DNA from: Mnemiopsis leidyi
Lineage: Eukaryota
NCBI GenBank assembly: GCA_048537945.1
Contig: CM108484.1
Span: forward strand, 9,059,785-9,123,784
Direction of reading: 5' to 3'
DNA: 64,000 nucleotides
Position numbers and translations under genes: made by a program. The notes below the pieces were generated by a model. It searched no databases and was not told the origin of the DNA. It worked only from the letters and a program-made list of their open reading frames with translations. Positions 3,163 to 60,060 of this stretch are shown one piece after another (the first letter of the stretch is position 1; each line of letters starts with the position of its first letter).

Positions 3163-3231
3163 ATGGATGCCCCAACAAAAGATGAGATCGACCAGATTTT
3201 TAAGAAGTTGAAGTATGTTGCGGGGAACAAG
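3163..3231 (+). CDS. ARFGAP3: ARFGAP exon 1 (ATG; [23 protein letters not shown])
   Basis: ATG at 3163, donor GTTAGA at 3232. Matches the ARFGAP2/3 N-terminus (M..P.K.DI..IFK.L....NK). A strong acceptor (TTTTTCTAG) 12 nt upstream of the ATG implies an upstream non-coding exon. Confidence 0.75.
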
Positions 3232-9200: not shown

Positions 9201-10422
9201 GGCACTTTTAGTTTTACAAATGGAAATGATGGATATTTAATCGCGACTTGGTGACGGTGTATTACTAGTTCAAGGAACTCGGCTCAAGGAACATATACCC
9301 AGCCTAAAAACTGTAATTTAAACACAACAGAAAGACTCAAAATTTAATTTTGCAGGCTGAACCAGCTCACGATCCGCACATAAACAACTTCCGGGGTGCG
9401 ACGTCCATCTCGTCAGATCAGTACTTCGGCAGGCCCGCTCCTCCTCAGTGTGAGTTTATCTTTAACTAGCCCAGCCAACTCAAAGAATAAGTATCAAGTT
9501 AAGTGTCTAACCTTGCTGACCGATGTCATTATATATATATATTTGATGGCCCTTAGATGCCAGCCCGGTTAGGGCAATCAATCAAAATCTCATTCTCTGT
9601 CTTTGAATCTGATTGTCCAACGTTTCAGCGAGTACGTATGGAGGATACAGTGGAGGGAACATAAATCTTAACTTCAACACTCCCGACCTGACTAACGTGA
9701 AGGCTAACCTAAGTGAGGGAGCGGCGCGGCTTAGTGGCAAGGTGAGTTGATAGTTTTGTATTCCCCGACTTAACTTGATAGGTAAATTGTAGACATATAG
9801 TTTTTAGTTTTCCACCCTAATCGATTTCTTGCAAACCTGAGCTGCCTGGTTCGTTAAAGCACAGCACATTTGTAAAGAGAAGTACGATTTTGATTCACCT
9901 TGGGATACAGTAATATGGGGTATATTTGTTGATTAAAATCATTACTAGGTGGCTGCCTACGGGCTGAATGTTTACTCTAAATTTAGTCCCATTAAATCAA
10001 AGTAAAGTGAGTCGCATGGCTCAAGCTTAATTGCATTATAGCGCTTTGGGATAAATGATTTTTAACAGTGTAATCACTTGCATGTTCATTGTTAAAGTTT
10101 TGTCACGATTAAATTTTATTCAATGTGTTTTGGGATTTATACGGTCCGATTTTAGTTAACTGCATGGTCGATAAGACTAAGAGCTGAAACATTTTGAATT
10201 TATATTAACTATCTATTTAACTGTAACATCTGCGTTAAAAACCTAATTCGATACTACTTATAGAAACCTAATTCAATACTGCTTTCATCCAATTTAACCC
10301 ATTCGTGCGATGTAAAGGATATAAAACTTCTTGAAGCTTCAATGAAACTCAATCCTAACCTCATTTTTCAGTTGACGGACATGTACTACGCAGCCCAGGA
10401 CAAATTGGAATCGTACAGATGA
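3163..10422 (+). CDS. ARFGAP3: ADP-ribosylation factor GTPase-activating protein 2/3-like gene (15 coding exons; ATG 3163, TGA 10420-10422)
   Basis: Spliced translation follows the ARFGAP2/3 domain order: N-terminal [23 protein letters not shown], a CFDC...C4 ArfGAP zinc finger ending ...[15 protein letters not shown], a lysine/glycine-rich middle region, a [15 protein letters not shown] block, [27 protein letters not shown], and a C-terminal ...QDKLESYR stop. All junctions are GT-AG and intron phases are consistent throughout. Exons: 3163-3231, 5153-5341, 5447-5505, 6266-6338, 7101-7185, 7461-7562, 7686-7768, 7929-8059, 8373-8467, 8571-8635, 8739-8926, 9046-9166, 9356-9449, 9629-9741, 10372-10422. 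Confidence 0.8.
4056..4290 (-). mobile_element. tRNA-derived SINE copy (in ARFGAP intron 1)
   Basis: The reverse complement begins with a tRNA-like head (GGTGTATTGGTATCTACCCCGACTTTCTATGCAGAAGGTCGGGGGTTCAATTCCCAGATCCGCCAATCCTAGAGG: A/B-box-like, GGTTCAATTCC T-arm). A conserved body follows, ending ...CCAGGAGCCCCTTCAGTATAACTGTAAAAGCCTGGGTAC. The same ~235-bp element is at 50525-50745, 53897-54181 and 54190-54415. Confidence 0.8.
5153..5341 (+). CDS. ARFGAP3: ARFGAP exon 2 (ArfGAP C4 zinc finger)
   Basis: Translates to [63 protein letters not shown], the canonical CxxC-x16-CxxC ArfGAP domain. Acceptor ...TTCAG|G, donor GTAAGT at 5342. Confidence 0.9.
5447..5505 (+). CDS. ARFGAP3: ARFGAP exon 3 ([19 protein letters not shown])
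   Basis: Matches ARFGAP2/3 ..FF...GC...D...KYNSRAA. Acceptor TTTCAG, donor GTTTGA. Ends in phase 2, which pairs correctly with exon 4. Confidence 0.75.
6266..6338 (+). CDS. ARFGAP3: ARFGAP exon 4 ([25 protein letters not shown])
   Basis: Continues the family motif NSRAAxxYRxKI. Acceptor TTTCCAG, donor GTTAAT. Phase is consistent. Confidence 0.7.
7101..7185 (+). CDS. ARFGAP3: ARFGAP exon 5 (..[14 protein letters not shown])
   Basis: Acceptor TTTTCAG, donor GTACTT. Contains the DFF motif of ARFGAP3 and the phase links exons 4 and 6. Confidence 0.6.
7461..7562 (+). CDS. ARFGAP3: ARFGAP exon 6 (Pro/Ala-rich linker)
   Basis: Acceptor CCCCGCAG, donor GTAAGA. Reading frame stays open only in the phase required by the flanking exons. 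Confidence 0.6.
7686..7768 (+). CDS. ARFGAP3: ARFGAP exon 7 (...[11 protein letters not shown])
   Basis: Acceptor TTTTCAG, donor GTAAGA. The lysine-rich KKKG motif is conserved in ARFGAP2/3. Confidence 0.65.
7929..8059 (+). CDS. ARFGAP3: ARFGAP exon 8 ([20 protein letters not shown]...)
   Basis: Matches the ARFGAP3 GLGAKKGLGAQKVS..FSEIE region. Acceptor TTTTTAG, donor GTAAGC. The phase requires exon 9 at 8373. Confidence 0.65.
8373..8467 (+). CDS. ARFGAP3: ARFGAP exon 9 (...SSRTSSDRL)
   Basis: Only this exon restores the frame between exons 8 and 10. Acceptor GCCAG|G, donor GTGTGT. Joins to give ..DRL-GMGMGRL, matching ARFGAP3 AERLGMGLVSRSSVSHS. Confidence 0.55.
8571..8635 (+). CDS. ARFGAP3: ARFGAP exon 10 ([21 protein letters not shown])
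   Basis: Acceptor CCTGCAG, donor GTAATC. Conserved GMG..S.VSH motif. Confidence 0.7.
8739..8926 (+). CDS. ARFGAP3: ARFGAP exon 11 ([13 protein letters not shown]...)
   Basis: VIEQETP is identical to human ARFGAP3. Acceptor TTGGCAG. The 3' end is set by phase: the only consistent donor is the weak GTCTGA at 8927, so the 3' boundary is less certain. Confidence 0.55.
9046..9166 (+). CDS. ARFGAP3: ARFGAP exon 12 (..[30 protein letters not shown])
   Basis: Matches ARFGAP3 [29 protein letters not shown]. Acceptor CTATCAG, donor GTTAGT. Confidence 0.65.
9356..9449 (+). CDS. ARFGAP3: ARFGAP exon 13 ([31 protein letters not shown])
   Basis: Second ISSD.F.G repeat, as in ARFGAP2/3. Acceptor TTTTGCAG, donor GTGAGT. 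Confidence 0.7.
9629..9741 (+). CDS. ARFGAP3: ARFGAP exon 14 (...[12 protein letters not shown])
   Basis: Acceptor GTTTCAG, donor GTGAGT. Phase is consistent with exons 13 and 15. Confidence 0.6.
10372..10422 (+). CDS. ARFGAP3: ARFGAP terminal exon ([16 protein letters not shown] stop)
   Basis: Acceptor TTTTTCAG. TGA at 10420-10422. The C-terminal ..QD.YGSY-like ending is typical of ARFGAP2/3. Confidence 0.6.
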   Translation: MTDMYYAAQDKLESYR

Positions 10423-11644: not shown

Positions 11645-14600
11645 CTGATAAAATCATTATTAAAATATTTCTGCAGGGAAGACTATTTTCTATCAATAAC
11701 TCGGGGTTTTATTTATTTGTCTAAAATTAAATAGAAGTCTTGAAGTGCGACTTACCCTTAACCTTAACATTAACAGCGCATACCTGGTTGCTATGTCCCG
11801 ATGTGGCAATAGCAGCAATATTTTCTGGTCCAAGATCCCCCACCATAGCTTTGAACTTGTCCGCCTCTATTTTCACCATTTTCCTCCGCTTTGTCACTTC
11901 AAGTTCGTTACAAGCTCGCAGGTAGTCCAACTCGCTTTTGCGGGCCGAAGAAATGCGTTCCAACTCCCCACGCTAAAAAATTGGGCGTAAATCAACAGAA
12001 ACTCGGCACTTTATCATTGATCCCAGGCCCGAATCGATAAATTAAAAAGTTCCATGGAGATTACTGCGAAGAACCTCAACAAAAACTCAAACTCAGTACT
12101 CACGGCGTTTATGTTCTCTGCTTCTGCAGCCAGTTTTGCCTGATCGACGGCTGCTTCCCCTTCAATTTTCATAGACTCAGCCCGAGACTGTGCCTCTGCT
12201 CTCGACTGCCCTGTGCTCTCGACGGCAGCTGAGCTGTCATAATACGGCTGATTAAATGACATAAATAAAGCAGCAATCTGCATTTCAATGTAAGAAATTC
12301 GTTGTGATTGAATTTAAATTTTAAGTTTTGAGCTTGTCTCTAAAATGTGACTGTAAATGGCCTGAAAGAACCGTAAGTTTGGGATTTTTATTTGAAATTG
12401 AACTTAGAAGAACACTGCGAAAACTCACACGGCTTGTAACTCTAAAAGTTCTTTTCTGGCCCTCTCCGCTTCTGCTTCATCGTTGAGTATCTGTCTCTCA
12501 AGTTTTCCTCGAGCCTCTTGGTCCAACCGCTCAGCTTCGTGTCTGAATCAAGAAAATTTCATAAATTCTTCAATTAAAATGCCTCAGCACAGTAAAATCC
12601 TAGAAAAAATGTGCAACCTTAGTTAGAGGTTAAAGGAAAAAAGATTTACCTAGCGGTTGCCTCCTGAGAGTTGGTAGTGATCTCAATAGCCAGCTGTACC
12701 GATTTCTGGAGGGAGTCTCTAGTTCTCTGATCGACTGGCTCGACAGACTGTATGTCTATATTAGATATTCTAAGTCGATTAGCTGGGAAGTATAGTGAGT
12801 CTTTGTCGCCCAGGATCGCTTGGTTTATTATTCTCACTGAGTGCTGAAAGTAATACTAGTAAGTTACCTCCAATCTTTTGTTCACAAATGACGTCATCAT
12901 TCTTACCCCTCCCCCTTTTTGCTTGTTCATCATTCGTCATCATGGCTAAACTCCTCCATGATGAACTTATCCCAGTCAGAACCCCCCCCCCTCCCTGCTT
13001 GAGGCTAAATAGCAAAATCTTTTATCATTTTGATCTTGTTCAAATGAGACAATTTTGCCATATAATTAGACTTCTACTTTCTCAAGTTAAAGTATGTACA
13101 GCATGAGCATTTCAATAACCTTGTGAAAGTCATCAAAAGGCACTGCTGCCACGGCTCCTCTTATTCTTGAAGCAATTGATTTGCAAGCGTCCCCGACAAA
13201 ATCTGGCACAGAAAACAGAGACTCGGAATCGCGCTTGTAAGTCGGCGAATCTTTCTTTGGCGTATCAAACTGCCTGCAGTTGTTAGGGAAATAGAAGATG
13301 ATTCATGAAACACTGGAGAAAATCGGGCTAATTATAGGTATCTCTCATAAGAGGGTTATCGCTAATAAATTGGCGCTAGGACTGGGAGTGAAACTTGACA
13401 GTTCGAGTAATGATTTGGTGTTTCCAGCAAACCATAGGTAGGTTCCTATTTAAATCAAATTCAAAATTGCTCATTTTTGCTTCGAGTCTTTCACTTACCA
13501 ATTGTAACAAAGCTGTAAAGAAAGCCTGGCATGGTCAGAAGTTTCCACCGTAAAAACATCCGTCATAAAATCAGGTCCAAGGGAGAGATCCAGAGTTCTG
13601 ATGACATTGGGTCGTTTAGGCTGGCCTCCAGAGAGACTAAGTTGGGTAAAGTGCTCGTCTGGGCCTAGCATGACCAAGTCTGGTCCGAATATTACCCTGA
13701 AATTGTTGGCTTGAGCTTCTGAAACACCTCAGTTATATTTGCAGACCAGAGTGTGGCTGCAGCTTTGCGGCAGCAGGCCTGACAACGTCAGGCAAGATTA
13801 GAATTGCTACGAAGAGTGAAGACATGAAGATGACCTCTCTCCTAGCTCTGGGTCATCCGTTTCTCATGTCTTCTTTGGTGTTCCATCCCCGTCCACTGTC
13901 GTTAACCCTTTAATCAGCTCTGAGCTCTTCTCTGACCTCCGTCATGCAATGCAAATTTAATATTTATCCCAAGGGTGGAACTGGAATAAATTAATTGCGC
14001 GCGCGTTGCGTAACGTACGTAACGTAAAAACATTAGTCGCGCGACAAAAACCACTAAAAAGACAAAAGGATTAGCGTGTTCCACAAAACACTCTAACAGT
14101 GTGTTAGTCCAGTAGGCCTTTCGGCAAAGTGGTACCATTTGAAAAGACCTAAATTGGCCATTTCAAGAAAAAACATAAAATTTTCAACACTAAATTGGAG
14201 GTGTTCCGCCCGTACGATTTTCTTCAAACTTTCAGAGCATGTTCCTTTTGACCAACACTACAAGATAGCGTCGGGAAAAGAGGGGGTTTATGAGTAAGTT
14301 TTCGAAATACAACTTCAAACACAAGGAAATATCTGATAATAAAAAAGCCCAATTCAGAGGTGTTCCGACCGTGCGATTTTCTTTAAAATTTTACAGTATG
14401 TTCCTCTTGATCTAAACTATCAGAAAACGTAAAAAAATTTGAGGGTCTATGTGTTAGTTTTCGAGATACAACCTTAAACACAGGGAAAAATCTAGAAATA
14501 AGTAAGCTGACCATGGAACAAGCCGATTTTGGAGGTGTTCCGACCGTACGATTGTCTTTCAAATTTCACAGTATGTTCCTTTTGATCTAAACTATTAGAA

Positions 14601-17600
14601 AATGTAAAAAAATTGGGGGGTCTATGTGTTAGCTTTCGAGATACATCTCTAAACACAAGGAAATATCTCAAAATAAATAGGCTGAGAATGAAACAAACAA
14701 ATTATGAAGGTGTTCCAACAGTACGATATTCTTCAAAAATTTCACAGAATGTTCATTTTTTACTAATTTTAATAGTTTTACAATTTAAAGTAATGTTAAT
14801 TTTATACTTATCAGTCGCAAAACGTAAAGCGTGCCTCCAGCCAGAAAAGACACGTGGTTTTCAGATTTCTAGTAATTTTAGGCTGACAATTTTAATTTTT
14901 CGGCTATAGGTGTGATGATTTTACGAAATTATCAAATTCGGATTCCTCGTCAAATTTTACGTCAAAATGCTGGTTTACCTTTTCTCCAGGCTCTAAGTCG
15001 AAAATTTCCATTTTGGGGCCCTATAGGGGTAACTTAAGGGGTCACGTGATGTTTTTGGATTTAAAACTATCAAATTCGGATTCGTCGTCAAATTTTACGT
15101 CAAACTACCGGTCTAACTTTTTTCCTAGCTCAAAGTTGAAAATATCCATTCTGAGGCCTTATAAGGGGTCACTAAACGGTCCACGTGATCATTTTTCGGC
15201 TCCGAAACTATCAAATTCGGCTTCCGCTGGTCTAACTTTTCTTTAAGTTCAAAGTTGAAAATTTTCATTTTTAGGGCCTTAAACTCTTTAAAGGCCCTTA
15301 AAGCTTAAAAGGCCTTCAGATCAACTTTTCACATAGCCTAAGCCACAGAACCCGCTAAAATCTACAATAAAATCTACCTGAAATTTTCATGACTCTGTCT
15401 TTTTCGTTTGGACTTCAATTCGTACCCCAATTTGGAGACTTTTTGGGCCTTTAAAGGCCCTAAGAGGGGTCGGAGCGAATTTTAACATGGCAAAAGTCAC
15501 AGAACGTGATGAAATCTACCTTATCTGAAACTTTCAAGTCTCTATCTCTTACCGTTTGGGCTCCAATTCGTTTGGGGGAAGGAGGAAAGGGAGAGGGGGG
15601 TGGTCAAGGGTCGTATACCACAATTCACGTTGTCATATTAGGGGGGTGGCAACGTTTTTTTTAAAACCCGGGCTACAATTGGACGAGAAATCAATTAGGA
15701 ATAGCCTCGAGGTTCAAACATTTTAGGTTAAACCTCGACACGGAATCATTTTTCCTCAATTTTTTAAAATTTTATAGAATAAACGAAAAGTTTCTGTATT
15801 TCAAGAATAACTTGGAACACACTAAGAAAATCGTAAGGTCGGAACACTTCCAAAAAGGCCTGGTACCATGGTCAGCGTACATATTATGAAATATTTTCTT
15901 GTGTTTGAAGTTGTATCTCCGAAACTAACACATAGACCCCCAAATTTTTTCGACGTAATCTTGTAGTTTGAATAGTAAGGAACATACTGTGAAGGTTTAA
16001 AGAACAATCCTATAGTCGGAACACCTCGAAAAGGCCTGGTACCATGGCCGGCGTACATATTTTGAGATATTTCCTTGTGTTTGAAGTTGTATCTCCGAAA
16101 CTAACACATAGACCCCCAAATTTTTTTACTTTTTCTGATAGTTTAGATCAAAAGGAAGATACTGTGAAATTTTAAAGAAAATCGCACGGTCGGAACACCT
16201 CCAAAAATGCCTAGTACCATGGTCAGCGTACATATTATGAGATATTTCCTTGTGTTTGAAGTTGTATCTCCGAAACTAACACATAGACCCCCAAACTTTT
16301 TTACTTTTTCTGATAGTTTAGATCAAAAGGAAGATACTGTGAAATTTTAAAGAAAATCGCACGGTCGGAACACCTCCAAAAATGCCTAGTACCATGGTCA
16401 GCGTACATATTATGAGATATTTCCTTGTGTTTGAAGTTGTATCTCCGAAACTAACACATAGACCCCCAAATTTTTTTACTTTTTCTGATAGTTAAGATCA
16501 AAAGGAAGATACTGTGAAATCTTAAAGAAAATCGCACGGTCGGAACACCTCCAAAAATGCCTAGTACCATGGTCAGCGTACATATTATGTGATATTTCCT
16601 TGTGTTTGAAGTTGTATCTCCGAAACTAACACATAGACCCCCAAATTTTTTTACTTTTTCTGATAGTTTAGATCAAAAGGAAGATACTGTGAAATCTTAA
16701 AGAAAATCGCACGGTCGGAACACCTCCAAAAATGCCTAGTACCATGGTCAGCGTACATATTATGTGATATTTCCTTGTGTTTGAAGTTGTATCTCCGAAA
16801 CTAACACATAGACCCCCAAATTTTTTTACTTTTTCTGATAGTTTAGATCAAAAGGAAGATACTATGAAATTTTAAAGAAAATCGCACGGTCGGAACACCT
16901 CCAAAAAGACCCGGTACCAAAATTTCGGCAAATTGGTACCATGGTACCAGAAAGTCCAACTCCGTGGTTATAATAATATCGCGACAACTAACACATAGAC
17001 CTCAACTTTTTTCGACGTAATCTTGTAGTTTGAATAGTAAGGAACATACTGTGAAGGTTTAAAGAACAATCCTATAGTCGGAACACCTCGAAAAGGCCTG
17101 GTACCATGGCCGGCGTACATATTTTGAGATATTTCCTTGTGTTTGAAGTTGTATCTCCGAAACTAACACATAGACCCCCAAATTTTTTTACTTTTTCTGA
17201 TAGTTTAGATCAAAAGGAAGATACTGTGAAATTTTAAAGAAAATCGCACGGTCGGAACACCTCCAAAAATGCCTAGTACCATGGTCAGCGTACATATTAT
17301 GAGATATTTCCTTGTGTTTGAAGTTGTATCTCCGAAACTAACACATAGACCCCCAAACTTTTTTACTTTTTCTGATAGTTTAGATCAAAAGGAAGATACT
17401 GTGAAATTTTAAAGAAAATCGCACGGTCGGAACACCTCCAAAAATGCCTAGTACCATGGTCAGCGTACATATTATGAGATATTTCCTTGTGTTTGAAGTT
17501 GTATCTCCGAAACTAACACATAGACCCCCAAATTTTTTTACTTTTTCTGATAGTTAAGATCAAAAGGAAGATACTGTGAAATCTTAAAGAAAATCGCACG

Positions 17601-20600
17601 GTCGGAACACCTCCAAAAATGCCTAGTACCATGGTCAGCGTACATATTATGTGATATTTCCTTGTGTTTGAAGTTGTATCTCCGAAACTAACACATAGAC
17701 CCCCAAATTTTTTTACTTTTTCTGATAGTTTAGATCAAAAGGAAGATACTGTGAAATCTTAAAGAAAATCGCACGGTCGGAACACCTCCAAAAATGCCTA
17801 GTACCATGGTCAGCGTACATATTATGTGATATTTCCTTGTGTTTGAAGTTGTATCTCCGAAACTAACACATAGACCCCCAAATTATTTTACTTTTTCTGA
17901 TAGTTTAGATCAAAAGGAAGATACTGTGAAATTTTAAAGAAAATCGCACGGTCGGAACACCTCCAAAAAGACCCGGTACCAAAATTTCGGCAAATTGGTA
18001 CCATGGTACCAGAAAGTCCAACTCCGTGGTTATAATAATATCGCGACAACTAACACATAGACCTCAACTTTTTTCGACGTAATCTTGTAGTTTGAATAGT
18101 AAGGAACATACTGTGAAGGTTTAAAGAACAATCCTATGGTCGGAACACCTCGAAAAGGCCTGGTACCATGGCCGGCGTACATATTTTGAGATATTTCCTT
18201 GTGTTTGAAGTTGTATCTCCGAAACTAACACATAGACCCCCAAATTTTTTTACTTTTTCTGATAGTTTAGATCAAAAGGAAGATACTGTGAAATTTTAAA
18301 GAAAATCGCACGGTCGGAACACCTCCAAAAATGCCTAGTACCATGGTCAGCGTACATATTATGAGATATTTCCTTGTGTTTGAAGTTGTATCTCCGAAAC
18401 TAACACATAGACCCCCAATTTTTTTTACTTTTTCTGATAGTTTAGATCAAAAGGAAGATACTGTGAAATCTTAAAGAAAATCGCACGGTCGGAACACCTC
18501 CAAAAATGCCTAGTACCATGGTCAGCGTACATATTATGTGATATTTCCTTGTGTTTGAAGTTGTATCTCCGAAACTAACACATAGACCCCCAAATTTTTT
18601 TACTTTTTCTGATAGTTTAGATCAAAAGGAAGATACTATGAAATTTTAAAAGAAAATCGCACGGTCGGAACACCTCCAAAAAGACCCGGTACCAAAATTT
18701 CGGCAAATTGGTACCATGGTACCAGAAAGTCCAACTCTGTTAGTCAGAAGGCCTTTCGGCAAAGTTGTTCCAATGAATGCCCTTAAATTTGCCGTTGCAA
18801 TGGAAAACATAGAATTTTAAACTCAAAATTGGAAGTGTTCCGACCGTACGATTTTCTTGAAAATTTCACAGTATGTTCCTATTGACCTAAATTAAAAGAT
18901 AACGTGGAGAAAATAGGGGGTCTAAGAGTCAGTTTTCGAGATACAACTTCAAACACAAGGAAATATCTTACCATAGAACAAGCCCATTTTGGAGGTGTTC
19001 CGACCGTACGATTTTCTTTAAAATTTCACAGAATGTTCCTTTTGATCTAAACTATCAGAAAATGTAAAAAAATTTGGGGGTCTATGTGTTAGTTTTCGAG
19101 ATACAACCTCAAACACAAGGAAATATCTCGAAATATGTACTCTGACCATGGAACAAGGCCTTTTTGGAGGTGTTCCCACCGTGCGATTTTCTTTAAACTT
19201 TCACAGTATGTTTCTATTGATCTAAACTATCAGAAAATGTAAAAAAATTTGGGGGTCTATGTGTTAGTTTTCGAGATACAACCTCAAACACAAGGAAATA
19301 TCTCGAAATAAGTACGCTGACCATAAAACAAGCCGATTTTGGAGGTGTTCCGACCGTACGATTTTCTTTAAACTTTCACAGTATGTTTCTTTTGATCTAA
19401 ACTATCAGAAAACGCAAAAAAGTTGGGGGGTCTATGTGTTAGTTTTCGAGATACAACCTCAAACACAAGGAAATATCTCGAAATAAGTACGCTGACCATG
19501 GAACAAGCCTATTTTGGAGGTGTTCCGACCGTACGATTTTTTTAAAACTTTCACAGTATGTTTCTTTTGATCTAAACTATCAGAAAATGTAAAAAAATTT
19601 GGGGGTCTACGTGTTAGTTTTCGAGATACAACCTCAAACACAAGGAAATATCTCGAAATATGTACTCTGACCATGGAACAAGGCCTTTTTGGAGGTGTTC
19701 CCACCGTGCGATTTTCTTTAAACTTTCACAGTATGTTTCTATTGATCTAAACTATAAGAAAATGTAAAATAATTTGGGGGTCTATGTGTTAGTTTTCGAG
19801 ATAAAACCTCAAACACAAGGAAATATCTCGAAATAAGTACGCTGACCATAAAACAAGCCGATTTTGGAGGTGTTCCGACCGTACGATTTTCTTTAAACTT
19901 TCACAGTATGTTCTTTTTGATCTAAACTATCAGAAAACGCAAAAAAGTTGGGGGGTCTATCTGTTAGTTTTCGAGATACAACCTCAAACACAAGGAAATA
20001 TCTCGAAATAAGTACGCTGACCATGGAATAAGCCTATTTTGGAGGTGTTCCGACCGTACGATTTTCTTTAAACTTTAACAGTATGTTCCTTTTAATCTAA
20101 ACTATCAGAAAATGTAAAAAAATTTGGGGGTCTATGTGTTAGTTTTCGAAAAACAACTTCAAACACAAGGAAATATCTCTAAATAAGTACGCTGACCATG
20201 GATCAAGCCGATTTTGGAGGTGTTTCGACCGTATGATTTTCTTTAAACTTTCACAGTATGTTCCTTTTGATCTAAACTATCAGAAAATGTAAAAAAATTT
20301 GGGGGTCTATGAGTTAGTTTTCGAGATACAACTTCAAACACAAGGAAATATCTCGAATTAAGTACACTGACCATGGAACAAGCCGATTTCGGAGGTGTTC
20401 CGGCCGTACGATTTTCTTTAAAATTTTACAGTATGTTTCTTTTGATCTAAATTATCAGAAAACGTAACAAAAAGTGGGGGTCTATGTGTAAGTTTTCGAG
20501 ATACAACTTAAAACACAAGGATATATCTCTTAATAAGTATGCTGTCCATGGAACAAGCCCATTTTGGAGGTGAGAAAAGTGGGGGTCTATATTTACGCTT

Positions 20601-23600
20601 TCGAGATATTATTCATCTCATAAGATAATTGGCGATCTTTTTTATGTAAAACCGTGTTGAATACAAGGTGTCTTCGAATCACTTCACCTTCCTTTTTAAG
20701 GCAGGTTCAGTCAGTCCACTTTGGTGGGTTAGTATTAGACATCAAGAGAGAGTCTCCAGTCAACTCTCTGTCAGTCAACTTTGTCAACCCATCAGATCCC
20801 CTCATTTAACCTGCTCGAAGTCCAACCTGCAGACCCTGGGGCCTGACACAGCCCTGGGTAACGAACAGTTGACACATAAATTTTGGTCAATCACAATTCA
20901 TATGCACCCACTCACGTCACCACCTTTAACCGCAGCTATTTGTCTTCTAGATGCTCATATTATAAGTGTATGAATCATAACCCCCCGCCGCTAGTCGTCT
21001 TCTAGCCACTCATGAGTGTATGAATTACAAACCTCTAACACGGACAGTGGAACATTAGACAAAACCAGCCAAGGGGAACTGGTAAAAGCTATGTCAGAAA
21101 TGTGCCTTTAACTAAACGCCACATACCAAATACAACCATGGAAATGCCAAAAAATGCCAAAACTTAACAGTAACAGTTAAAACCACGTCCCGGACCAAGG
21201 CATCAAACACTCGGTCCCCAAAGAACAATATGCACGATTAAGCCACGAGGGTCACCTAGCAGGACCGTTAGCAAAAAGCAGTGGTAGTCCCTCGCAGAAA
21301 CCACCTCACCATTCCGGAAGGGCGTTTCGACGCTTGACTCCTAACGGGTTCACTATGGCAATGACAGAGGTCCTTCAGGACATCCTCGATCCACCGGGCC
21401 TTAACATTTTGTTATGTCCTTTGGAAGTACCAGCCTAGCGAACCCCCAGCCAGCTGGGCTTTTGGTACACTCCTGCAATCCAAAGGAACCCCTAGAAACG
21501 TTAGCCACAAGGCGGACGTAGCCTTCTTGTTAATTCAGGAAGGCAATGTGGGTGCCCACTGAGTAATTTAAAAAGAAAAAAGTCCACTTTCTCATTTTGG
21601 TCATTTTATGTACATGTTACTGCCCTCTGAGGTACGTGTTACTGTCCTTTCAAGTACGTGTTACCGTTCTTACAGTAACGTGTTACTGTCCTCTCAGGTG
21701 CGTGTTACTGTCCTCTCAGGTACGTGTTACTGCCCTCTCAGATACGTGTTGCTTTTCTTTCAATAACGTGTTACCGTCCTCCGAGTATGCGTTACCTTTC
21801 AGATACGTTTTAAATCGAAAATGAGGATAAATATAGATATCACCGCAGCCTTGCGGGCGGTATTGGTTAAAACCACAAGGAACATTCTGAGAAAGTGTAA
21901 AGGAAATTGTACAATCGGAACACCTCCAAAAAGGCCTTGTTCCATGGTCAGAGTACATGTATTTCGAGAAATTTCCTTGTGTTTGAGGTTGTATCTCGAA
22001 AACTAACACATAGACCCCCCAATTTTTTTACATTTTCTGATAGTTTAGATCAATAGGAACATACTGTGAAAGTTTAAAGAAAATCGCACGGTCGGAACAC
22101 CTCCAAAAAGGCCTTGTTCCATGGTCAGAGTACATATTTCGAGATATTTCCTTGTGTTTGAGGTTGTATCTCGAAAACTAAAACATAGACCCCCAATTTT
22201 TTTACATTTTCTGATAGTTTAGATCAAAAGGAACATACTGTGAAAGTTTAAAGAAAATCGCACGGTGGGAACACCTCCAAATAGGCCTTGTTCCATGGTC
22301 AGAGTACATATTTCGAGATATTTCCTTGTGTTTGAGGTTGTATCTCGAAAACTAACACATAGACCCCCCAATTTTTTTACATTTTCTGATAGTTTAGATC
22401 AAAAGGAACATACTGTGAAAGTTTAAAGAAAATCGCACGGTGGGAACACCTTCAAAAAGGCCTTGTTCCAAAATTTTGGCTATTTGGAACAATGGAACAA
22501 GAAAGTCCAACTCCGTGGTTTTTTAGCTATATCTCGAAAACTAAAAAATAGGCCCCCATTTTTTTCGACGAATTCTTGTAGTTCTGATCGATAGGAACAT
22601 TCTGAGAAAGTGTAAAGGAAATTGTACAGTGGGAACAACTCCAAAAAGGCCTTGTTCCATGGTCAGAGTACATATTTCGAGATATTTCGTTGTGTTTGAG
22701 GTTGTATCTCGAAAACTAACACATAGACCCCCAAATTTTTTTACATTTTCTGATAGTTTAGATCAATAGGAACATACTGTGAAAGTTTAAAGAAAATCGC
22801 ACGGTCGGAACACCTCCAAAAAGGCCTTGTTCCATGGTCAGAGTACATATTTCGAGATATTTCCTTGTGTTTGAGGTTGTATCTCGAAAACTAACACATA
22901 GACCCCCCAATTTTTTTACATTTTCTGATAGTTTAGATCAAAAGGAACATACTGTGAAAGTTTAAAGAAAATCGCACGGTGGGAACACCTTCAAAAAGGC
23001 CTTGTTCCAAAATTTTGGCTATTTGGAACAATGGAACAAGAAAGTCCAACTCCGTGGTTTTTTAGCTATATCTCGAAAACTAAAAAATAGGCCCCCATTT
23101 TTTTCGACGAATTCTTGTAGTTCTGATCGATAGGAACATTCTGAGAAAGTGTAAAGGAAATTGTACAGTGGGAACAACTCCAAAAAGGCCTTGTTCCATG
23201 GTCAGATTACATATTTCGAGATATTTCGTTGTGTTTGAGGTTGTATCTCGAAAACTAACACATAGACCCCCAAATTTTTTTACATTTTCTGATAGTTTAG
23301 ATCAAAAGGAACATACTGTGAAAGTTTAAAGAAAATCGCACGGTGGGAACACCTCCAAATAGGCCTTGTTCCATGGTCAGAGTACATATTTCGAGATATT
23401 TCCTTGTGTTTGAGGTTGTATCTCGAAAACTAACACATAGACCCCCCAATTTTTTTACATTTTCTGATAGTTTAGATCAAAAGGAACATACTGTGAAAGT
23501 TTAAAGAAAATCGCACGGTGGGAACACCTTCAAAAAGGCCTTGTTCCAAAATTTTGGCTATTTGGAACAATGGAACAAGAAAGTCAAACTCCGTGGTTTT

Positions 23601-47600: not shown

Positions 47601-50600
47601 GTACATTTGTAGAAATTTAATGTGTAATTAAATTTATGACAGACATTCAATAACTTTTAATTGTGACAGTTCAGCAGGTGAAGACTAAGGGGCATACAGG
47701 AGAGTGAAAACTCTTACTTTTACGAGTTTCTTCCTACCAAACTGGTTCTTTCCATCAGCTCCGACTGGGTCTAATATAACGCAGTACTGTCTGTCTGTTA
47801 GGACCGTTACAGCAACTGTATCCTTTACCTCCTCGAAAACATCAGGAATAAATGAAACGGCATCCTGCAAGGTAAATTCATCAACACAAAATCTAATACC
47901 TCAGGTAAAAGAACAACCAATCTAGTAGCTAGTTCTGTAGTTCATACTTCGCTACAGTTCATAATTTTTTGCAATTTGATAGTTTCGAATCCGAATAATC
48001 GTCACGTGACCCCTTAAGTGATCCAATATAAGGCCCCAAAATGGAAATTTGTAACTTTGATCAAAGAGAAAAGTTAGACCAGTATTTTGGCGTAAAATTT
48101 AACGGCGAATCCGATGGTGACAGTCCCGAAGCTCAAAAAACTTTTTTAAACCTTCTATATGGCCCTTATTGACTCTCTATAGGCCAAAACTAAAATTTTT
48201 TTAACTTTGAGGTAGAAGAAAAGTTAGAATAGTAATTTCACGTAAAATTTGACAAGGGATCCGAATTAAAAGTTCGAAGCTGAAAAAATATTACGTTATT
48301 GCTAAGTGACCCCTTATTCTTGACCTAAAAGAAAAGTTAGACCAGCATTTAGACATGAAATTACAAGGAATCTGAAAACCACGTGTCTTTTCTGGCTGGG
48401 GCACCCTTTGCGTTTTGCGACTGACTCAATACCACATGATTTATAATTCATAAAAAAATTAACCATTTAAAATTGCACTTGCACTTATAGTATAAGGATA
48501 AATCCAATAATTGGAAATTTATCGAGCAAACATCAAAACTAAAACCTTTTCAGTCACCAGCCATTCCTGCCCCGTTTTCCTCTTCTTGCCGAATCTGTCA
48601 GTAAAACTCTGGGTAGCAACCACGTGCAGAGCAAGCTTTTTGTTCAGTTTGTGTGCAGACAGGGCACCTATAATCTGCTCGTGAGGACCAGGTAAGTAAG
48701 CTCCAGGCCTGCTCACCAGCCACTCTTCTCCTGACACTCGGGCTCTTCCTTCTCTGTCCTAATATTAAGAAGTTTTATATTAGCAGGACAAATGACGTTG
48801 TCTTGCCAGCATAATTTGTTGGTCTGGTTCTGAAGATCAAAGCCACTAAATATTTAAGCTGTAAAGATTTAAGCTGAAGTTAATAGCTTTAAAGTTGCAT
48901 TGACATTATGATAGTGTGAGTCTGGAGCTGGCTAAGTATAAAAAACTTGGAGCTGGACTCATTAAAAAATAAACATTCCGAAACTACAACCAAACTCCAT
49001 TAACTCATATCTATCATATCTCAGAACAAAAACCTTGCAGTCTCGTTCAGCTCTAATCCTCAGAGCGGTATGTGGTATTTGAGGGATGACTGTAGCTTTT
49101 ATAGTCTCAACCACCTCCACCTCAATGCGCGGGGTATAAGTACCTGTGAGGGTTCCTTTTAAGTTTGCAATGTGTCATGATATAAGCATCATATAGAAAA
49201 AAATTAGTTTAGGGCCTCCTGTGTTATTTAGATTTAAAATGTACCTGGGCCCTCAAACAGCCATTGGTCCAAAGCAAGACGATTGATTTCACCATCTTTG
49301 AAGTCCCTAAGAGCTTGCAATCTCAGTGCAGTATCACAAGGAACGGCTCTTAGTTTGGTCACTGCTTCATCAAGTCTTTCTCCTGGATACAGCGGGAATG
49401 GTTGTCCAGCAAGTCTCACTTCCAGGTCCCCATATTTCAGTTTGGCCTGAGGTTAATACTTCGTCAACTAAAGAAGGGTAGGCACATAAGTGCTAAAATT
49501 AGCTTATTCTCATGGTTACTGTAAATCCTACTGACAATTATTGTTTTTTTTATTTTAAAATATTACAGCTCTTTTCAGATAACTTTACAATTAAAAAGGT
49601 TTTTACATGGTAAGGTATTTTAGAATTTGCAGTTTAGATGAAATAATTTTTGTTAGACTAAAACTTAATTTGAATAGATGAGTTTTATAAAAAAATAAGG
49701 TTGGTATTTTTGCCATATGATTCTAAGAATATTAAGGACTAAGATATCAGTTGAGAATCATTTTTAGAGCAAAATATGTTTATTTTGAACCTGCCCAGTT
49801 GATTCAAGAACAACATTTCCAGTAGAGTCTTTGGTAACTGGGTGACGAACAACACAATAATGGTTAGGAGGTATAATAACCATTTTTGATGGTCCTTGAA
49901 CAACCTCCTCGTTGTCCTGCAAAATAATTAAGCTCTTTTAACAATAAGTTTTTGTTCTCAACAACAAAAGATTCAGTACAGGGATATAGTCTTGAAGCCT
50001 GAGCTATTTAAGAGTCCATGAGTATGACTAACAAGGACTACAGACACTTTTGACCTTAGGGCGACTGGCTGAGCAAAGCCGGCTGCAATGAAAAATGGCT
50101 GTTTTTGGTTTCTTTTGGTCTTTTTTGCAATAGAAAGTCAGATTGTAAGGCATTTCAATGTAATTAAACCTGAAAATACTTGCCCAGATTTAACTATGGA
50201 CTGACCAAATTCTTGATGAACCTATAATGCATTTGATCATGATTCATGGATTATGCATGGCAGTGGCCTAGCCAGGGGGATCCATTGGATCCCCCCTCTT
50301 GAAATTAAAATTTAGAAAAATTTTAAGACTAATTAGTATAAGGCAAGGATTCATCTGGCATATAAGTAAGTACGACTGTTAGTCTGAATATTTCCTAGCT
50401 TTTTAGTAGTCCCAAGATGGAAATGCGGAGTTTAACTATGCCCTTTTAACGGGTCGTCCACATAAGATGTCATCAAGTTTTCGGCATTTTTTACCAACCC
50501 CCCTCTCCCTCCTCTGTCATCATGAGTTGGTAGTGTTATAGTGGTATCTATCCTGACTTTCTACGCAGGAGATCGGGGGTTCAATTCCCAGATCCGCCAA

Positions 50601-52493: not shown

Positions 52494-52834
52494 TCTTTCT
52501 GCAAAGATTATGTATTATCTGTGTTAAAGCTTAACAAAATTAGCAATATGAGAACATACCTGAAAATAATTAGGGTGGTGGCAACCACCCCCAAATTTTA
52601 ATGGGAGTTCAAAAAAAGGTGCCATCCCCCCTAGTATGACAACAGGAAGTGTGGTATACGACCCCCCCTGACTTCCTGACCAATCCCGACCCCCCACTGA
52701 CGCTTTTTTGCAAACAAATTGGAGCCCAAAAGGTAAGAGATAGAGACTCGAAAATTTCAGATAAGGTAGATTTCATTACGTTCTACGGCTTTGGCTATGT
52801 TACAATTAGCTCCAACCCCTCTAAGGAACCTTTA

Positions 52835-53470
52835 AGGCCTTAAAAGCCGATATATCCGAATTTGATAGTTTTGAATCCATAAAACGAGCAAGTGACCCCT
52901 TAAGTGAACCCTTATAGGGCCCAAAAATAGAAATTTTCAACTTTAAGCAAGGAGAAAAAATAGACCAGTATTTTGACATAAAATTTGATAAGGAATCCGA
53001 ATTTGATAGTTTTGAATGTGAAAAATGGTCACGTGACCCGTTAAGTGAGCCCTTATAAGGCCTCAAAATGGAAATTTTTAACTATGGCCTAGGGGAAAAG
53101 TTAAACCAGTAAAATTTGATGAGGAATCTAAATGTGAAGGTTTTGAATCCGAAAAATCATCATGTGCCCCCATAAGTGACCCCCTATAGCCAAAAATTGA
53201 AAATTTTTAACTTTGTTGTAGATGAAAAGTTAGACTAGTATTTTCACATAAAATTCGACAAGGAATCCAAATTAAAAGTTTGAAGTCAAAAAATATCACA
53301 TGACCTGCTGAGTATTTTTTGTATTTGTTTTTTGTTACAAAAATTTTGAATTTTTGGCTATAGGGGGTCACTTATGGGGCCACATGATGATTTTTCGGAA
53401 TCAAAACCTTCACATTTAGATTCCTCGTCAAATTTTACTGGTTTAACTTTTCCCCTAGGCCATAGTTGAA
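52835..53470 (+). repeat. Satellite family B, block 3, upstream of the MVP start; the last ~130 bp (53335-53470) is inverted relative to 53085-53200
   Basis: Same monomer family. 53340-53465 is the exact reverse complement of 53085-53200, giving a local inverted duplication. The flanking segment 52560-52830 is the reverse complement of 15290-15560. Confidence 0.8.
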
Positions 53471-53896
53471 AATGAATAATGTTCCCATCCTTCAGCAGCC
53501 TTCTTTCTGTCTGCTAGGGCCAGGATGGTCTGGGGATCGGCTCATTCTTCGGATTGTGACTAGGATTGCAATTAATCAACTCCATGAGATTTGACTTGAA
53601 CACGACATCAAGTATGTTGAACGGTTTTCATAATGAACTTAAGATTTTTTCCAAGCGGGCAGTGACACATGATTTCTTGCATCGTCAACATGACACTCGG
53701 TCTTTGCCGGGTGGGTTGATGGGGCAAGTACCCGCTCATTGAGGTCGAGATTAATTGTTTCTGAATGGAACACTTCTACGTCAACCCACACTTCACTAAT
53801 TTACTGTTTGAGTGTGAGAATGAGATATATTTATAATTTGATTTTTAAAATGCTGTATATAAAATTTGTTGTTTTCTTGAAATTTGTTGTTTTCTT

Positions 53897-54181
53897 GTAC
53901 CCAGGCTTTTACAGTTATACTGAAGGGGCTCCTGGAAGATTCTAGATCTTTTAACGGAGACCCTTCTCATTTAACCCTCAATCACTGTTTCCCGGTCATT
54001 TAGCTAAGTCGACTGAATAAGATTGCATAGGCAAATGCCCTTAGCGCAATCCTCTAGGATTGGCAGATCTGGGAATCAAACCCCCGATCTTCTGCATGGA
54101 AATTATTGTTTTCCTTGAAATTATTGTTTTCCTTGAAAGTCGGGTAGATACCACTACACCACCAACTCACAAAGTGACCCC
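53897..54181 (-). mobile_element. tRNA-derived SINE copy with an internal 18-bp tandem duplication
   Basis: Same family. Contains GGAAATTATTGTTTTCCTTGAAATTATTGTTTTCCTTGAAAG inserted in the tRNA-like head. Confidence 0.8.
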
Positions 54182-54189
54182 TTTTCTTG

Positions 54190-54415
54190 AGCCCCTTCTC
54201 ATTTAACCCTCAATCACTGTTTCCCGGTCATTTAGCTAAGTCGACTGAATAAGATTGCATAGGCAAATGCCCTTAGCGCAATCCTCTAGGATTGGCAGAT
54301 CTGGGAATCGAACCCCCGATCTTCTACATGGAAATTATTGTTTTCCTTGAAATTATTGTTTTCCTTGAAAGTCGGGTAGATACCACTACACCACCAACTC
54401 ACAAAGTGACCCCTT
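54190..54415 (-). mobile_element. Partial SINE copy created by tandem segmental duplication of 53955-54185
   Basis: Carries the same private 18-bp internal duplication as the adjacent copy and lacks the first ~55 bp of the SINE tail. This points to local duplication, not independent insertion. Confidence 0.7.
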
Positions 54416-54419
54416 TTCT

Positions 54420-54530
54420 TAAGCTAGAAGAAAAGTTAGACCAGCATTTAGACGTAAAATTACAAGAAATCTGAAAACCACGTGTATTTTCTGGCTGGAG
54501 GCACGCTTTGCTCTTGAGACTGATATGGAT
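54420..54530 (+). repeat. Satellite family B terminal fragment (one unit plus the conserved CTGAAAACCACGTGTATTTTCTGGCTGG terminus)
   Basis: Matches 48300-48425 and the reverse complement of 14820-14880. Confidence 0.7.
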
Positions 54531-59185: not shown

Positions 59186-60060
59186 GTGAGTGGGGCAATT
59201 GGCGCCAATGGATCCACTCAATGGAAAGAATGGATGTTCCAATGGCGCCAATGGCGATGAGGTCAGTGGTGCCAATGGTGGTCCCCATCGCCGGTGCCAA
59301 TGGATGTGTTCCATTGACGACAATGGCTATCGCCATTGGCGACCATTGGATCATTTATAGTGGATCCATTGGAACCACTCGATGGCGATACCTTTTTCAC
59401 GATCACCACTCAGAGTGATTGGATCATTTGGAATTACAATGGCGACAATGGTAGCAATGGTGACAATGGTACCAATGGTGACAATGGTACGGACAATGGC
59501 GACATTGGTGACAATGGCACCAATGGCAACAATGGCGTCAATGGCGTCAATGGCGATAATCAGATAATAATTATACCGAATTATCGGCATTAACGACAGT
59601 GGTGCCATTGCGCCAATGTTGCCATTGTCGGCCCCATTGTCACCATTGTCACCACTGTCGCTATTTTTGAGGTATCATTTTTATCTTTGCCTGATTACTA
59701 TTGTTCCATTGGTACCATTTTTGCCATTGTCGGTACCATTGTCGCCATTGGTACCATTGTCGCCATTGGTACCATTGTTGCCATTGCTACCATTGTCGGC
59801 TGTCGCCATTCTAATTCCAAATGATCCATTCACTCTGAGTGGTGATCGTGAAAAAGGTAATGCCATCGAGTGGTTCCAATGGATCCATGATATAATATCC
59901 AATGGCGATAGCCATTGTCGCCAATGGAACACATCTATTGGCGCCAATGGCAATGGGGACCACCATTGGCACCACTGACCCTATCGCCATTGGCGCCATT
60001 GGAACATCCATCTGTTCCATTGAGTGGATCCATTGGCCCCTATTGCCCCACTCACCAAAC
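59186..60060. repeat. ~870-bp near-perfect palindrome built from 9-bp CCAATGG(N2)-type units (left arm 59186-59578, right arm 59595-60060)
   Basis: Left arm: GGTGAGTGGGGCAATTGGCGCCAATGGATCCACTCAATGG...(CAATGGTGA/CAATGGTAC/CAATGGCGA)n. Right arm is its reverse complement: ...CCATTGAGTGGATCCATTGGCCCCTATTGCCCCACTCACC. About 90 CCAAT/ATTGG motifs, many in NF-Y-like context (RRCCAATGG). Lies 1.75 kb upstream of the clathrin heavy chain ATG. Confidence 0.9.

Follow-up and report, generated by a model that had tools for sequence, protein, structure and literature searches.

A short non-autonomous interspersed element carries the family B tandem repeats at the major vault protein gene of Mnemiopsis leidyi

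The family B tandem repeats of Mnemiopsis leidyi raise the question whether they are a satellite that was amplified in place or the inner part of an element that was dispersed, and, in the latter case, how this element was copied. A preliminary description of the window, i.e., of the whole stretch of 64,000 nucleotides that was analyzed, had viewed them as a bounded, dispersed composite element, possibly transposon-borne, with a parallel in bivalves. The dispersal of a bounded composite unit stood, but the bivalve frame, a proposed hairpin and the Helentron repeats did not; the host is a ctenophore.

Family B is not a free-standing satellite; its tandem repeats form the internal module of an interspersed element that is short, non-coding and non-autonomous. 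The window contains three copies of the element (c1, c2 and c3) with sizes of about 0.46-0.87 kb, and every one of them is located in or adjoins the gene for the major vault protein (MVP). The common module order is a terminus of about 110 bp, the B monomers, the "C" units, a low-complexity stretch and a 68-bp module named "U" (Table 1). The B monomers are 138-141 bp long, and not about 130 bp as described before, and 2-5 of them are present per copy, with no array larger than five. The C units are about 145 bp long, and their number is 0-2 per copy. A scan of the window with HMMs for the terminus, C, U and B modules yielded matches at these three places only. The open reading frames of the element had no Pfam match, which indicates that it is non-autonomous, and the window contains no long open reading frame. 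A relationship between B and family A was rejected, as the B HMM matched no A monomer, and the C units have at best a marginal likeness to B (E=0.0066).

Table 1. Positions of the element copies and their modules in the window
Feature	Position	Length	Strand	Remarks
Copy c1	14811..15675	865 bp	+ (TC-first reading)	terminus, B array, two C units, purine-rich stretch, U
c1 conserved terminus	14811..14911		+	begins TCAGTCGCAAAACG; A precedes at 14810; tail HMM E=2e-29
c1 B array	14912..15313		+	full monomers 14940-15077 and 15078-15218, partial monomer on each side
c1 C units	15269..15578		+	C HMM E=1e-51 and 1.9e-17
c1 purine-rich low-complexity stretch	15579..15607		+	position equivalent to c3 A-run and variable stretch
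c1 U module	15608..15675		+	U HMM E=1e-20
Hairpin past c1 U	15707..15738		+	8-bp stem TCGAGGTT/AACCTCGA; dG -9.7, z -1.96
Copy c2	47965..48424	460 bp	-	terminus and one good, one diverged and one partial B monomer
c2 B array	47973-48372			
Copy c3, part 1	52570..53312		-	palindrome, U, variable stretch, T-run, C unit, B monomers
c3 palindrome	52574-52591			GGGTGGT-GGCA-ACCACCC; reverse complement continues ...CCACCCTAA, then T
c3 U module	52600-52664			variable stretch next
c3 T-run and GCAAAC	52704-52715			
c3 C unit	52706-52849			single unit
c3 B monomers	52858-53312			three and one partial
Nested insertion or rearrangement splitting c3	53313..54403	1,091 bp	.	
Copy c3, part 2 (conserved terminus)	54404..54523		-	tail HMM E=1.3e-32

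Copy c1 lies inside an MVP intron of about 32.9 kb and is flanked by family A blocks of opposite orientation. The block at 14.8 kb had been reported to abut family A directly; spacers were found in between, an AT-rich one of about 45-50 bp (14760-14810) and one of about 80 bp (15676-~15758). The inner half of the c1 terminus is a degenerate B monomer. Copy c2 is also intronic, between the MVP exons 47685-47870 and 48519-48737. Its terminus ends with GACTGA at 48424, its B array is preceded by TTTTTTGCAA (47965-47974) on the plus strand, and it has neither C units nor U.

Four loci with the same terminus had been proposed. The motif of about 50 bp, CTGAAAACCACGTGT(C/A)TTTTCTGGCTGG(G/A)GGCAC, is real and was found at 14831-14864 (minus strand), 48372-48405 (plus strand) and 54471-54504 (plus strand), with a chance expectation of 0, but these are three termini of three copies. 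The 52.8-kb block has no terminus of its own, and the 54.4-kb locus has no B block and consists only of a tail of about 120 bp. Comparison with c2 revealed that the two loci are one copy, c3, which was split by an insertion of 1,091 bp; with c2 as reference, the break point is between ...GCTGAGT and GACCCCTT.... The c3 terminus ends with GACTGA at 54523 and is followed by T at 54524, i.e., A precedes TC in the TC-first orientation. Within the insertion, an inverted copy of B sequence at 53339-53473 has 96% complementarity with 53074-53208. The insertion also comprises unique DNA of about 400 bp and, at 53878-54403, a tandem dimer with a 232-bp period of a tRNA-derived SINE. Matches to the plant families MIR2646 and MIR7533 of Rfam were far under the threshold and reflect nothing more than the long inverted duplication of c3.

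The flank of about 270 bp that had been regarded as common and non-repetitive does match in reverse complement between 15.3-15.7 kb and 52.6-52.85 kb, but it is not one non-repetitive piece. It is composed of the distal C unit of c1 (15435-15578), which is 84% identical to the c3 C unit, and of U, and unalignable low-complexity sequence separates the two. The proximal C unit of c1 (15269-15423) is diverged and has no counterpart in c3.

The boundaries of the element are consistent, as c1, c2 and c3 all end at the identical nucleotide. The identity is 89-92% for the last 60 bp and 46-59% for the next 60 bp, versus 48±4% in the null distribution, and the flanks past the element boundaries are unrelated between the copies. 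Outside of this region, a fourth copy (L004) on an estuarine metagenome contig contains the flank and the B array; its identity to c1 is 93% over 691 bp. It carries additional monomers and lacks U, and its flank differs from that of c1 after ...GTTTGCAAAA. Monomers of the two copies match by position, with identities of 98% (c1_a/L004_a) and 96% (c1_b/L004_b), compared with about 81% for neighbours in one array. These position matches and the drop of similarity exactly at the terminus indicate that the arrays were dispersed as bounded units and were not amplified at each site. The classical satellite pattern, i.e., long homogeneous arrays with neighbours most alike and no conserved ends, was not observed, and the conserved ends and position-matched monomers bear out the earlier view that purely local amplification does not fit. 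The number of monomers varies, with about 2.7 B monomers in c1, at least 4.8 in L004 and no C units in c2; most simply, B and C unit counts shift after copying by unequal exchange. The 87-bp flank of L004 and the flanks of c1 and c2 were rejected as common "variable regions", because their similarity was no higher than that of shuffled sequences.

Taken together, the element is very probably mobile and was dispersed unit by unit. Alternatively, the copies could be immobile, i.e., they could derive from one old short array and its edges by ectopic or segmental duplication and could have spread within the rearrangement-prone MVP/satellite region via recombination, template switching or reintegration of circular DNA. 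All window copies are indeed at most 40 kb apart and in one gene, inversions and duplicated satellite blocks are present in the region, c3 contains the 96% inverted duplication, and 7-bp direct repeats around two copies (see below) are possible microhomology junctions. However, this explanation is highly improbable: the window copies are old and about equally diverged in pairwise comparisons (70-85%) and nonetheless share their end nucleotide, no copy is accompanied by flanking homology, and L004, a close relative of c1, resides in a different sequence context. In addition, conservation is higher in the terminus than elsewhere in the element, and this points to selection for a cis function.

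The mechanism of copying was judged from four copies, L004 and the three window copies, the latter within 40 kb and in one gene. Rolling-circle (Helitron-like) transposition is the most likely mechanism, although its probability stays somewhat below one half, and an autonomous partner located elsewhere would drive the copying. Canonical Helitrons have a 5' TC, a 3' CTRR, a palindrome of 16-20 nt about 11 nt upstream of the 3' end, and an A/T insertion without target-site duplication. Under Helitron-like copying, the terminus of the preliminary description would be the 5' end, i.e., the replication start, with TC inserted after a host A, and this role would account for the terminus being constant and best conserved. 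The opposite end would be the terminator, composed of a palindrome and CTAA with a host T next, which would be intact in c3 only; in the copies c1, c2 and L004 it would have been lost or replaced.

In the TC-first orientation, TCAGTC is the start of three of the three window copies, at 14811 (plus strand), 48424 (minus strand) and 54523 (minus strand); the dinucleotide TC alone is weak evidence. The preceding base is A in c1 and c3 and G in c2. No segment is better conserved than the TC end, in agreement with a cis-acting initiation site. At the far end of c3, an 18-nt palindrome with 7-bp stems (dG -7.5, z -1.94) is followed by CTAA (52573 to 52570) and then by T. Sites that combine a hairpin of 7 bp or more with CTRR and T have a frequency of 0.077 per kb per strand, corresponding to p ~0.002 at a fixed boundary. 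The distance of the palindrome to the end is 3 nt, versus the canonical value of about 11 nt, and c3 is the only copy with such an end. The 90 bp beyond U in c1 contain no CTRR; they diverge and have a different hairpin (z -1.96). The latter is located in the unique 80 bp beyond U and could be an alternative end of the c1 element. Copies c2 and L004 both lack the c3-type 3' end and have the same A/T-run stop, which would not be predicted by a Helitron model. Thus, of the Helitron hallmarks that had been suggested for inspection, the 5' TC and, in c3, the palindrome with CTAA and T were found, in the reversed orientation only, but c1 lacks such an end and direct repeats are present. In the original orientation, no significant 3' hairpin was found (folding z 0.17, 1.09 and -0.01).

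The direct repeats have a length of 7 bp. Copy c1 has TACAATT at 14779-85 and 15674-80, and c2 has TTCATAA at 47958-64 and 48447-53; one copy of the repeat is 22-25 nt past the conserved terminus, and the chance is ~0.01 per element copy. They argue against a Helitron, because Helitrons make no target-site duplications. A 6-bp repeat around c3 (TGACCA) was judged to be due to chance.

Read in the orientation of the preliminary description, the element could be a LINE-dependent retroposon with an internal VNTR (SVA-like layout). The terminus would then be a 3' region that is recognized by the reverse transcriptase of the partner and is followed by a degenerate AT-rich tail of 22-25 nt, the copies would be truncated variably at the 5' end, and the 7-bp repeats would be target-site duplications. 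Indeed, in each of c1 and c2 one unit of these repeats coincides exactly with the variable end and the other follows GACTGA at a distance of 22-25 nt, the terminus has been kept in all three window copies, and the other end varies (no C and U in c2, no U in L004, c1 and c3 longest). Furthermore, the identity of c1 and c2 just outside the terminus tops the null distribution (59% versus 48±4%). Nevertheless, retroposition is unlikely. The element has no poly(A) or clear microsatellite tail, but instead 22-25 nt that are AT-rich and poorly conserved, there is no matching duplication at c3, and no tRNA-, 5S- or 7SL-like head was detected in the element with ARAGORN and Rfam; the pol III B-box pattern was absent from the element and confined to the tRNA-SINE copies, which are separate from it. 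Random 5' truncation would not predict that c2 and L004 start at an identical T-run followed by GCAA, and the TC/A coincidence and that of the palindrome with CTAA and T would be left without explanation.

The third alternative is an element of the HINE/DINE-1 type, i.e., one of the Helentron-associated interspersed elements that are found in oysters and Drosophila. The left side of a HINE is a flank with a subterminal inverted repeat, a complementary inverted repeat and a microsatellite, followed by a variable stretch; central tandem repeats and a right flank of about 60 bp with a subterminal repeat and a palindrome make up the remainder, and the insertion is into TT (PMC7492417). The element was compared with this group for subterminal inverted repeats of 11-15 bp at 2-4 nt from the 5' and ~38-60 nt from the 3' end, for a short palindrome at 8-35 nt from the 3' end of the right flank, and for T-runs at the two boundaries. 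The module order of the M. leidyi element is close to that of Cg_HINE (PMC7492417): U contains an inverted repeat (52569-52585 versus 52620-52640), and a pyrimidine-rich/variable stretch, tandem repeats and a conserved flank of about 60-110 bp are present. The low-complexity/variable stretch is placed between the left flank and the central tandem repeats, as in HINE, and a variable T-run (4-6) is found at one boundary in c2, c3 and L004. However, the terminus side has no T-run, but a single T at most. Neither an 11-15-bp inverted repeat between the ends nor a conserved inverted match of at least 7 bp between head and tail was found; the best imperfect pair in a manual alignment agreed at 10 of 14 positions, included a gap and was 17 nt from the end. 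The right flank repeats the outermost 5' motif in direct and not in inverted orientation, and the right flanks have no significant palindrome (z 0.17, 1.09 and -0.01). The subterminal inverted repeats of Helentrons and HINEs were thus not found, the earlier analogy to Helentron-associated satellites is not supported in the form proposed, and a HINE is regarded as a remote alternative. Terminal inverted repeats, as in TIR DNA transposons or MITEs, are absent from the element.

Considering all four readings, a non-autonomous, B-carrying element of the Helitron-like type is the best explanation overall, and it is put forward tentatively.

Searches in sequence collections added little to the four copies. 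The terminus motif had no match in viral, metagenome and prokaryote genome collections, which contain almost no M. leidyi DNA and are therefore uninformative on this point, and the other B and C patterns had no match in viral or genome collections. The B pattern was found at seven loci in metagenome contigs, only one of which (L004) is real, and three times in viral contigs, always by chance. A possible connection with the CTEP loop-anchor motif that has been reported for M. leidyi (PMC12221973) was dropped, because the text gives no motif and the element is not rich in GC. Translated B, C and tail open reading frames had no match in a protein-space search, and exact-protein look-ups of one open reading frame of the window, two frequent family A open reading frames and the M. 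leidyi ArfGAP protein were likewise without match.

Satellite-like arrays inside mobile elements are well documented in bivalves, insects and cnidarians, and such short arrays are thought to seed new satellites and to be a source of regulatory change. In the papers that matched Mnemiopsis/ctenophore repeat searches of one literature library, no such arrays were described for ctenophores. The element represents an ordinary, known kind of repeat behaviour in a new host. It is very unlikely that it is the first member of a non-autonomous rolling-circle (Helitron-like) family of ctenophores by which satellite-like arrays are carried and seeded; if true, the transposon-to-satellite route would be present in the lineage of the ctenophores, which are often placed as sister to all other animals.

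An influence on the host gene is conceivable. Copy c3 shares its orientation with the gene, and the MVP start codon (~52505) lies 65 bp downstream of the c3 end; c3 may act on MVP. Most B monomers have retained a palindromic E-box (TCACGTGA), and the family could thus supply promoter/E-box modules to nearby genes. As a chromosome-scale genome and chromatin maps exist for M. leidyi, a defined family would allow the link between transposons and satellites to be tested in an early-branching animal. It could also show which transposition machinery moves the element and whether gene-adjacent copies, e.g., c3 at MVP, contribute regulatory sequence.

Several known systems resemble the element in part. 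Like Cg_HINE of the Pacific oyster and DINE-1/HINE (PMC7492417, PMC4067079), it is short and non-coding, has a central array of 1-10 satellite-like monomers of about 100-170 bp in variable number, a low-complexity/variable stretch on one side and a conserved flank of about 60 bp on the other, and its copies lie in introns and near genes. In contrast to them, the subterminal inverted repeats, which define the group, were not found in it, its conserved flank has no significant palindrome and no T-run at that end, and its host is a ctenophore; this comparison is one of layout, not of sequence. It resembles SVA-type composite retroposons in that its 3' region is conserved, its internal tandem array varies in length, its 5' end reaches to different extents and short target-site duplications may be present, but such duplications are found at two of the three copies, and a poly(A) tail, a promoter/SINE head and a known partner LINE are missing. 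In the TC-first reading, the likeness to canonical Helitrons and their derivatives consists of TC after a host A (two of three copies), a GC-rich 18-nt palindrome with CTAA and a host T in one copy, a 5' end that is constant while the 3' ends vary, and no coding capacity. It differs from them in the palindrome 3 nt from the end, the restriction of the canonical 3' end to one copy and the 7-bp direct repeats in two. Lastly, the Helitron-related subtelomeric repeat of Hydractinia (PMC11934779) also has tandem units of about 140-150 bp and also resides in a non-bilaterian animal, but it forms megabase-scale subtelomeric expansions, whereas the arrays of M. leidyi are short and dispersed.

Three copies of a short non-coding element (c1, c2 and c3) were found in the window, and the coordinates of all features are collected in the table. 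The module order was constant in the copies: a terminus of ~110 bp, the inner half of which is a degenerate B monomer, is followed by B monomers, C units, a T/A-run with a low-complexity stretch and the U module; the modules C and U are missing in c2. The terminus motif occurs three times, and none would be expected by chance. The preliminary description had listed ~130-bp monomers at four loci, all with this end. The arrays are real at three of them, the monomers measure 138-141 bp, and the 54.4-kb locus holds just a ~120-bp tail. When compared with c2, the 52.8-kb array is seen to stop at ...GCTGAGT (53312) and to go on at GACCCCTT... (54404), and, thus, the two loci are one copy, c3, interrupted by 1,091 bp. 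A shared 270-bp flank had also been noted; it exists, but it is a composite of a C unit (~145 bp) and U (68 bp), with low-complexity sequence in between that cannot be aligned between c1 and c3. An additional, diverged C unit is present in c1. Instead of directly abutting the 175-bp satellite family A, as had been proposed, the element lies 45-80 bp away from it on either side, and the family A blocks flanking c1 are in opposite orientation. HMMs, one per module, had no matches in the window outside the three copies, no ORF within the element matched a protein family, and no RNA family, tRNA-like head or pol III B box was found in it.

Within the interruption of c3 are B sequence duplicated in inverted orientation (arms 96% complementary), about 400 bp of unique DNA and a tRNA-derived SINE in the form of a tandem dimer with a 232-bp period. 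This SINE (~240 bp, B box GGTTCRATTCC, plus an 18-bp tandem motif) is found at three places in the window. If transcribed, the 135-nt inverted B duplication with its 130-nt spacer would give a long hairpin; it also produced spurious sub-threshold matches to Rfam plant miRNA precursor families.

All three copies share the same end nucleotide, and over their last 60 bp identity is 89-92%. In the 60 bp beyond this end it falls to 46-59%, compared with a null of 48±4%, and no similarity between the copies was found outside their boundaries. The terminus is the best-conserved part, whereas B monomers are just 74-85% identical between copies. A fourth copy, L004, is borne by an estuarine metagenome contig (Ga0181585_10331538, 1,052 bp). 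Its identity with c1 is 93% over 691 bp. It includes the two C units as well as a minimum of 4.8 B monomers, and beyond ...GTTTGCAAAA the contig continues with 87 bp without any match in the window. Monomers at the same position were nearly identical (c1_a/L004_a 98%, c1_b/L004_b 96%), whereas neighbours within an array share about 81% identity; the last, diverged monomers of c2 and c3 are reciprocal best matches. Local amplification at each site, already doubted in the preliminary description, cannot yield this combination of findings. Copying of the whole array with its edges can produce the observed pattern, and unequal exchange after copying would lead to differing unit numbers. The common end nucleotide, the unrelated flanks, the L004 copy and the position-matched monomers thus support the earlier interpretation of family B as bounded, dispersed and borne by a mobile element; a non-mobile ectopic duplication of the copies is very unlikely.

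The mechanism was weighed on these four copies. The proposed assignment to Helitrons or Helentrons is supported in part, and only in the orientation opposite to the one first used. In the original orientation, the canonical Helitron hallmarks fail, as no hairpin lies before ...CTGA. In the TC-first reading, the "terminus" becomes the 5' end, every copy begins with TCAGTC, and a host A precedes it in c1 and c3. The far end of c3 carries an 18-nt palindrome (GGGTGGT-GGCA-ACCACCC; dG -7.5, z -1.94), and the reverse complement ends with ...CCACCCTAA ahead of a T. The combination of a hairpin (7 bp or more), CTRR and T is rare, with 0.077 sites per kb per strand, and would occur at a fixed boundary with a probability of ~0.002. 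A Helitron-like nature in the TC-first reading is tentatively preferred, at somewhat less than even probability. The conserved terminus would then be the initiation end, and the variable opposite ends would be terminators that were lost or replaced. Several observations count against it: the palindrome-CTRR end is present in c3 only, and its palindrome lies 3 nt from the tip, in contrast to ~11 nt in canonical Helitrons; c1 diverges just short of this end and has another hairpin without CTRR; and c2 and L004 both end at the same A/T-run. In addition, 7-bp direct repeats flank c1 (TACAATT) and c2 (TTCATAA), with one copy of each right at the variable end and its partner 22-25 nt past the conserved end (chance ~0.01 per copy). 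These repeats would suit a 5'-truncated retroposon whose AT-rich tail is degenerate. This reading is unlikely; it has no poly(A) tail, no promoter-like head and, in c3, no duplication. The remaining probability belongs to another or unknown mechanism.

The window DNA is eukaryotic. The M. leidyi protein ACHWQZ_G011753 (P0121), an ArfGAP, maps to exons that, where clean, are 100% identical, showing that the source is the ctenophore M. leidyi or indistinguishable from it, and not a bivalve; the parallel drawn to bivalve satellites is no more than an analogy. The ArfGAP gene is convergent with the 3' end of a major vault protein (MVP) gene, which spans the family A satellite and has c1, c2 and c3 within or beside it. 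Its ~32.9-kb intron (exon end 46633 to exon start 13725) contains c1 together with family A in its entirety, in four blocks. The best-matching homologues in the database share only ~46% identity, and the search matches included no MVP protein from M. leidyi; current annotations may lack this gene or have it split. Seven of the 12 CACGTG sites (E-box) in the window fall in element copies, usually as TCACGTGA, and the site is retained in 8 of 11 full B monomers examined, although the monomers are ~80% identical overall and the site contains a CpG. Any regulatory role is purely speculative.

Coordinates of the features in the window
Feature	Position	Strand	Remark
c1	14811-15675		satellite-filled MVP intron
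c2	47965-48424		MVP intron between exons 47685-47870 and 48519-48737
c3	52570-53312 + 54404-54523		TC-first reading: end 65 bp upstream of MVP start codon (gene's orientation)
Terminus motifs	14831-14864, 48372-48405, 54471-54504	-, +, +	
B monomer arrays	14912-15313, 47973-48372, 52858-53312		
C unit	15435-15578, 52706-52849		c1, c3
U module	15608-15675, 52600-52664		c1, c3
Palindrome	52574-52591		c3
Inverted B arms	53074-53208, 53339-53473		c3
tRNA-derived SINE	4055-4290, 50531-50765, 53878-54403		last: dimer in c3
CACGTG in copies	14851, 15043, 15182, 48003, 48380, 53030, 54479		
ArfGAP exons	3163-10419	+	
MVP gene	13498-52505	-	
MVP start codon	near 52505	-	
MVP exon	52374-52505	-	
MVP exons	from 49.9 to 46.6 kb	-	
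MVP exons	13725-13498, 13272-13105, 12915-12649	-	after long intron
Family A blocks	14102-14790, 15760-18744, 18738-20572, 21877-45401	+, -, +, -	last is largest
Palindrome-like region	59200-60020		
9-bp microsatellite, complement	59436-59560, 59706-59810		
22-bp tandem repeat	21610-21781		
G-rich motifs	50480-50540, 15579-15607		

Further repeats were observed. Family A blocks share edges (14102-14195 is similar to 18738-18829), and identity is 84% between 15824-18744 and 42515-45452, which suggests that entire blocks underwent inverted or segmental duplication; a 364-bp higher-order period was additionally reported by TRF. Two of the blocks are separated by a 1.3-kb gap, in which a 22-bp tandem repeat (GTACGTGTTACTGTCCTCTCAG, 7.8 copies) is located. 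In the palindrome-like region, the 9-bp microsatellite (ACAATGGCG)n stands opposite the complementary (CCATTGTCG)n, and both strands carry mirror-image ORFs; the region is a possible foldback-type element. G-rich motifs, GGAGGGAGAGGGGGG(T)TGGT, adjoin a SINE copy and the U module of c1; the downstream sequences are partly similar, in inverted order, and the sites may represent another small repeat family.

Finally, the element was compared with Helentrons and their associated interspersed elements (HINEs), using published diagnostic features (PMC4067079, PMC7492417). The layout resembles that of HINEs, but subterminal inverted repeats were not found, the conserved flank contains no significant palindrome, and a T-run is present at one boundary only. 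HINE membership is not supported, and a HINE proper is very unlikely. The papers that library searches for Mnemiopsis and ctenophore repeats retrieved contain no description of such an element, nor of any satellite, in M. leidyi. Tandem repeats in non-autonomous elements are well known, e.g., oyster Cg_HINE, Drosophila DINE-1 and the Helitron-related repeats of Hydractinia (PMC11934779), and the family B element is a known sort of repeat carrier in a new host lineage.
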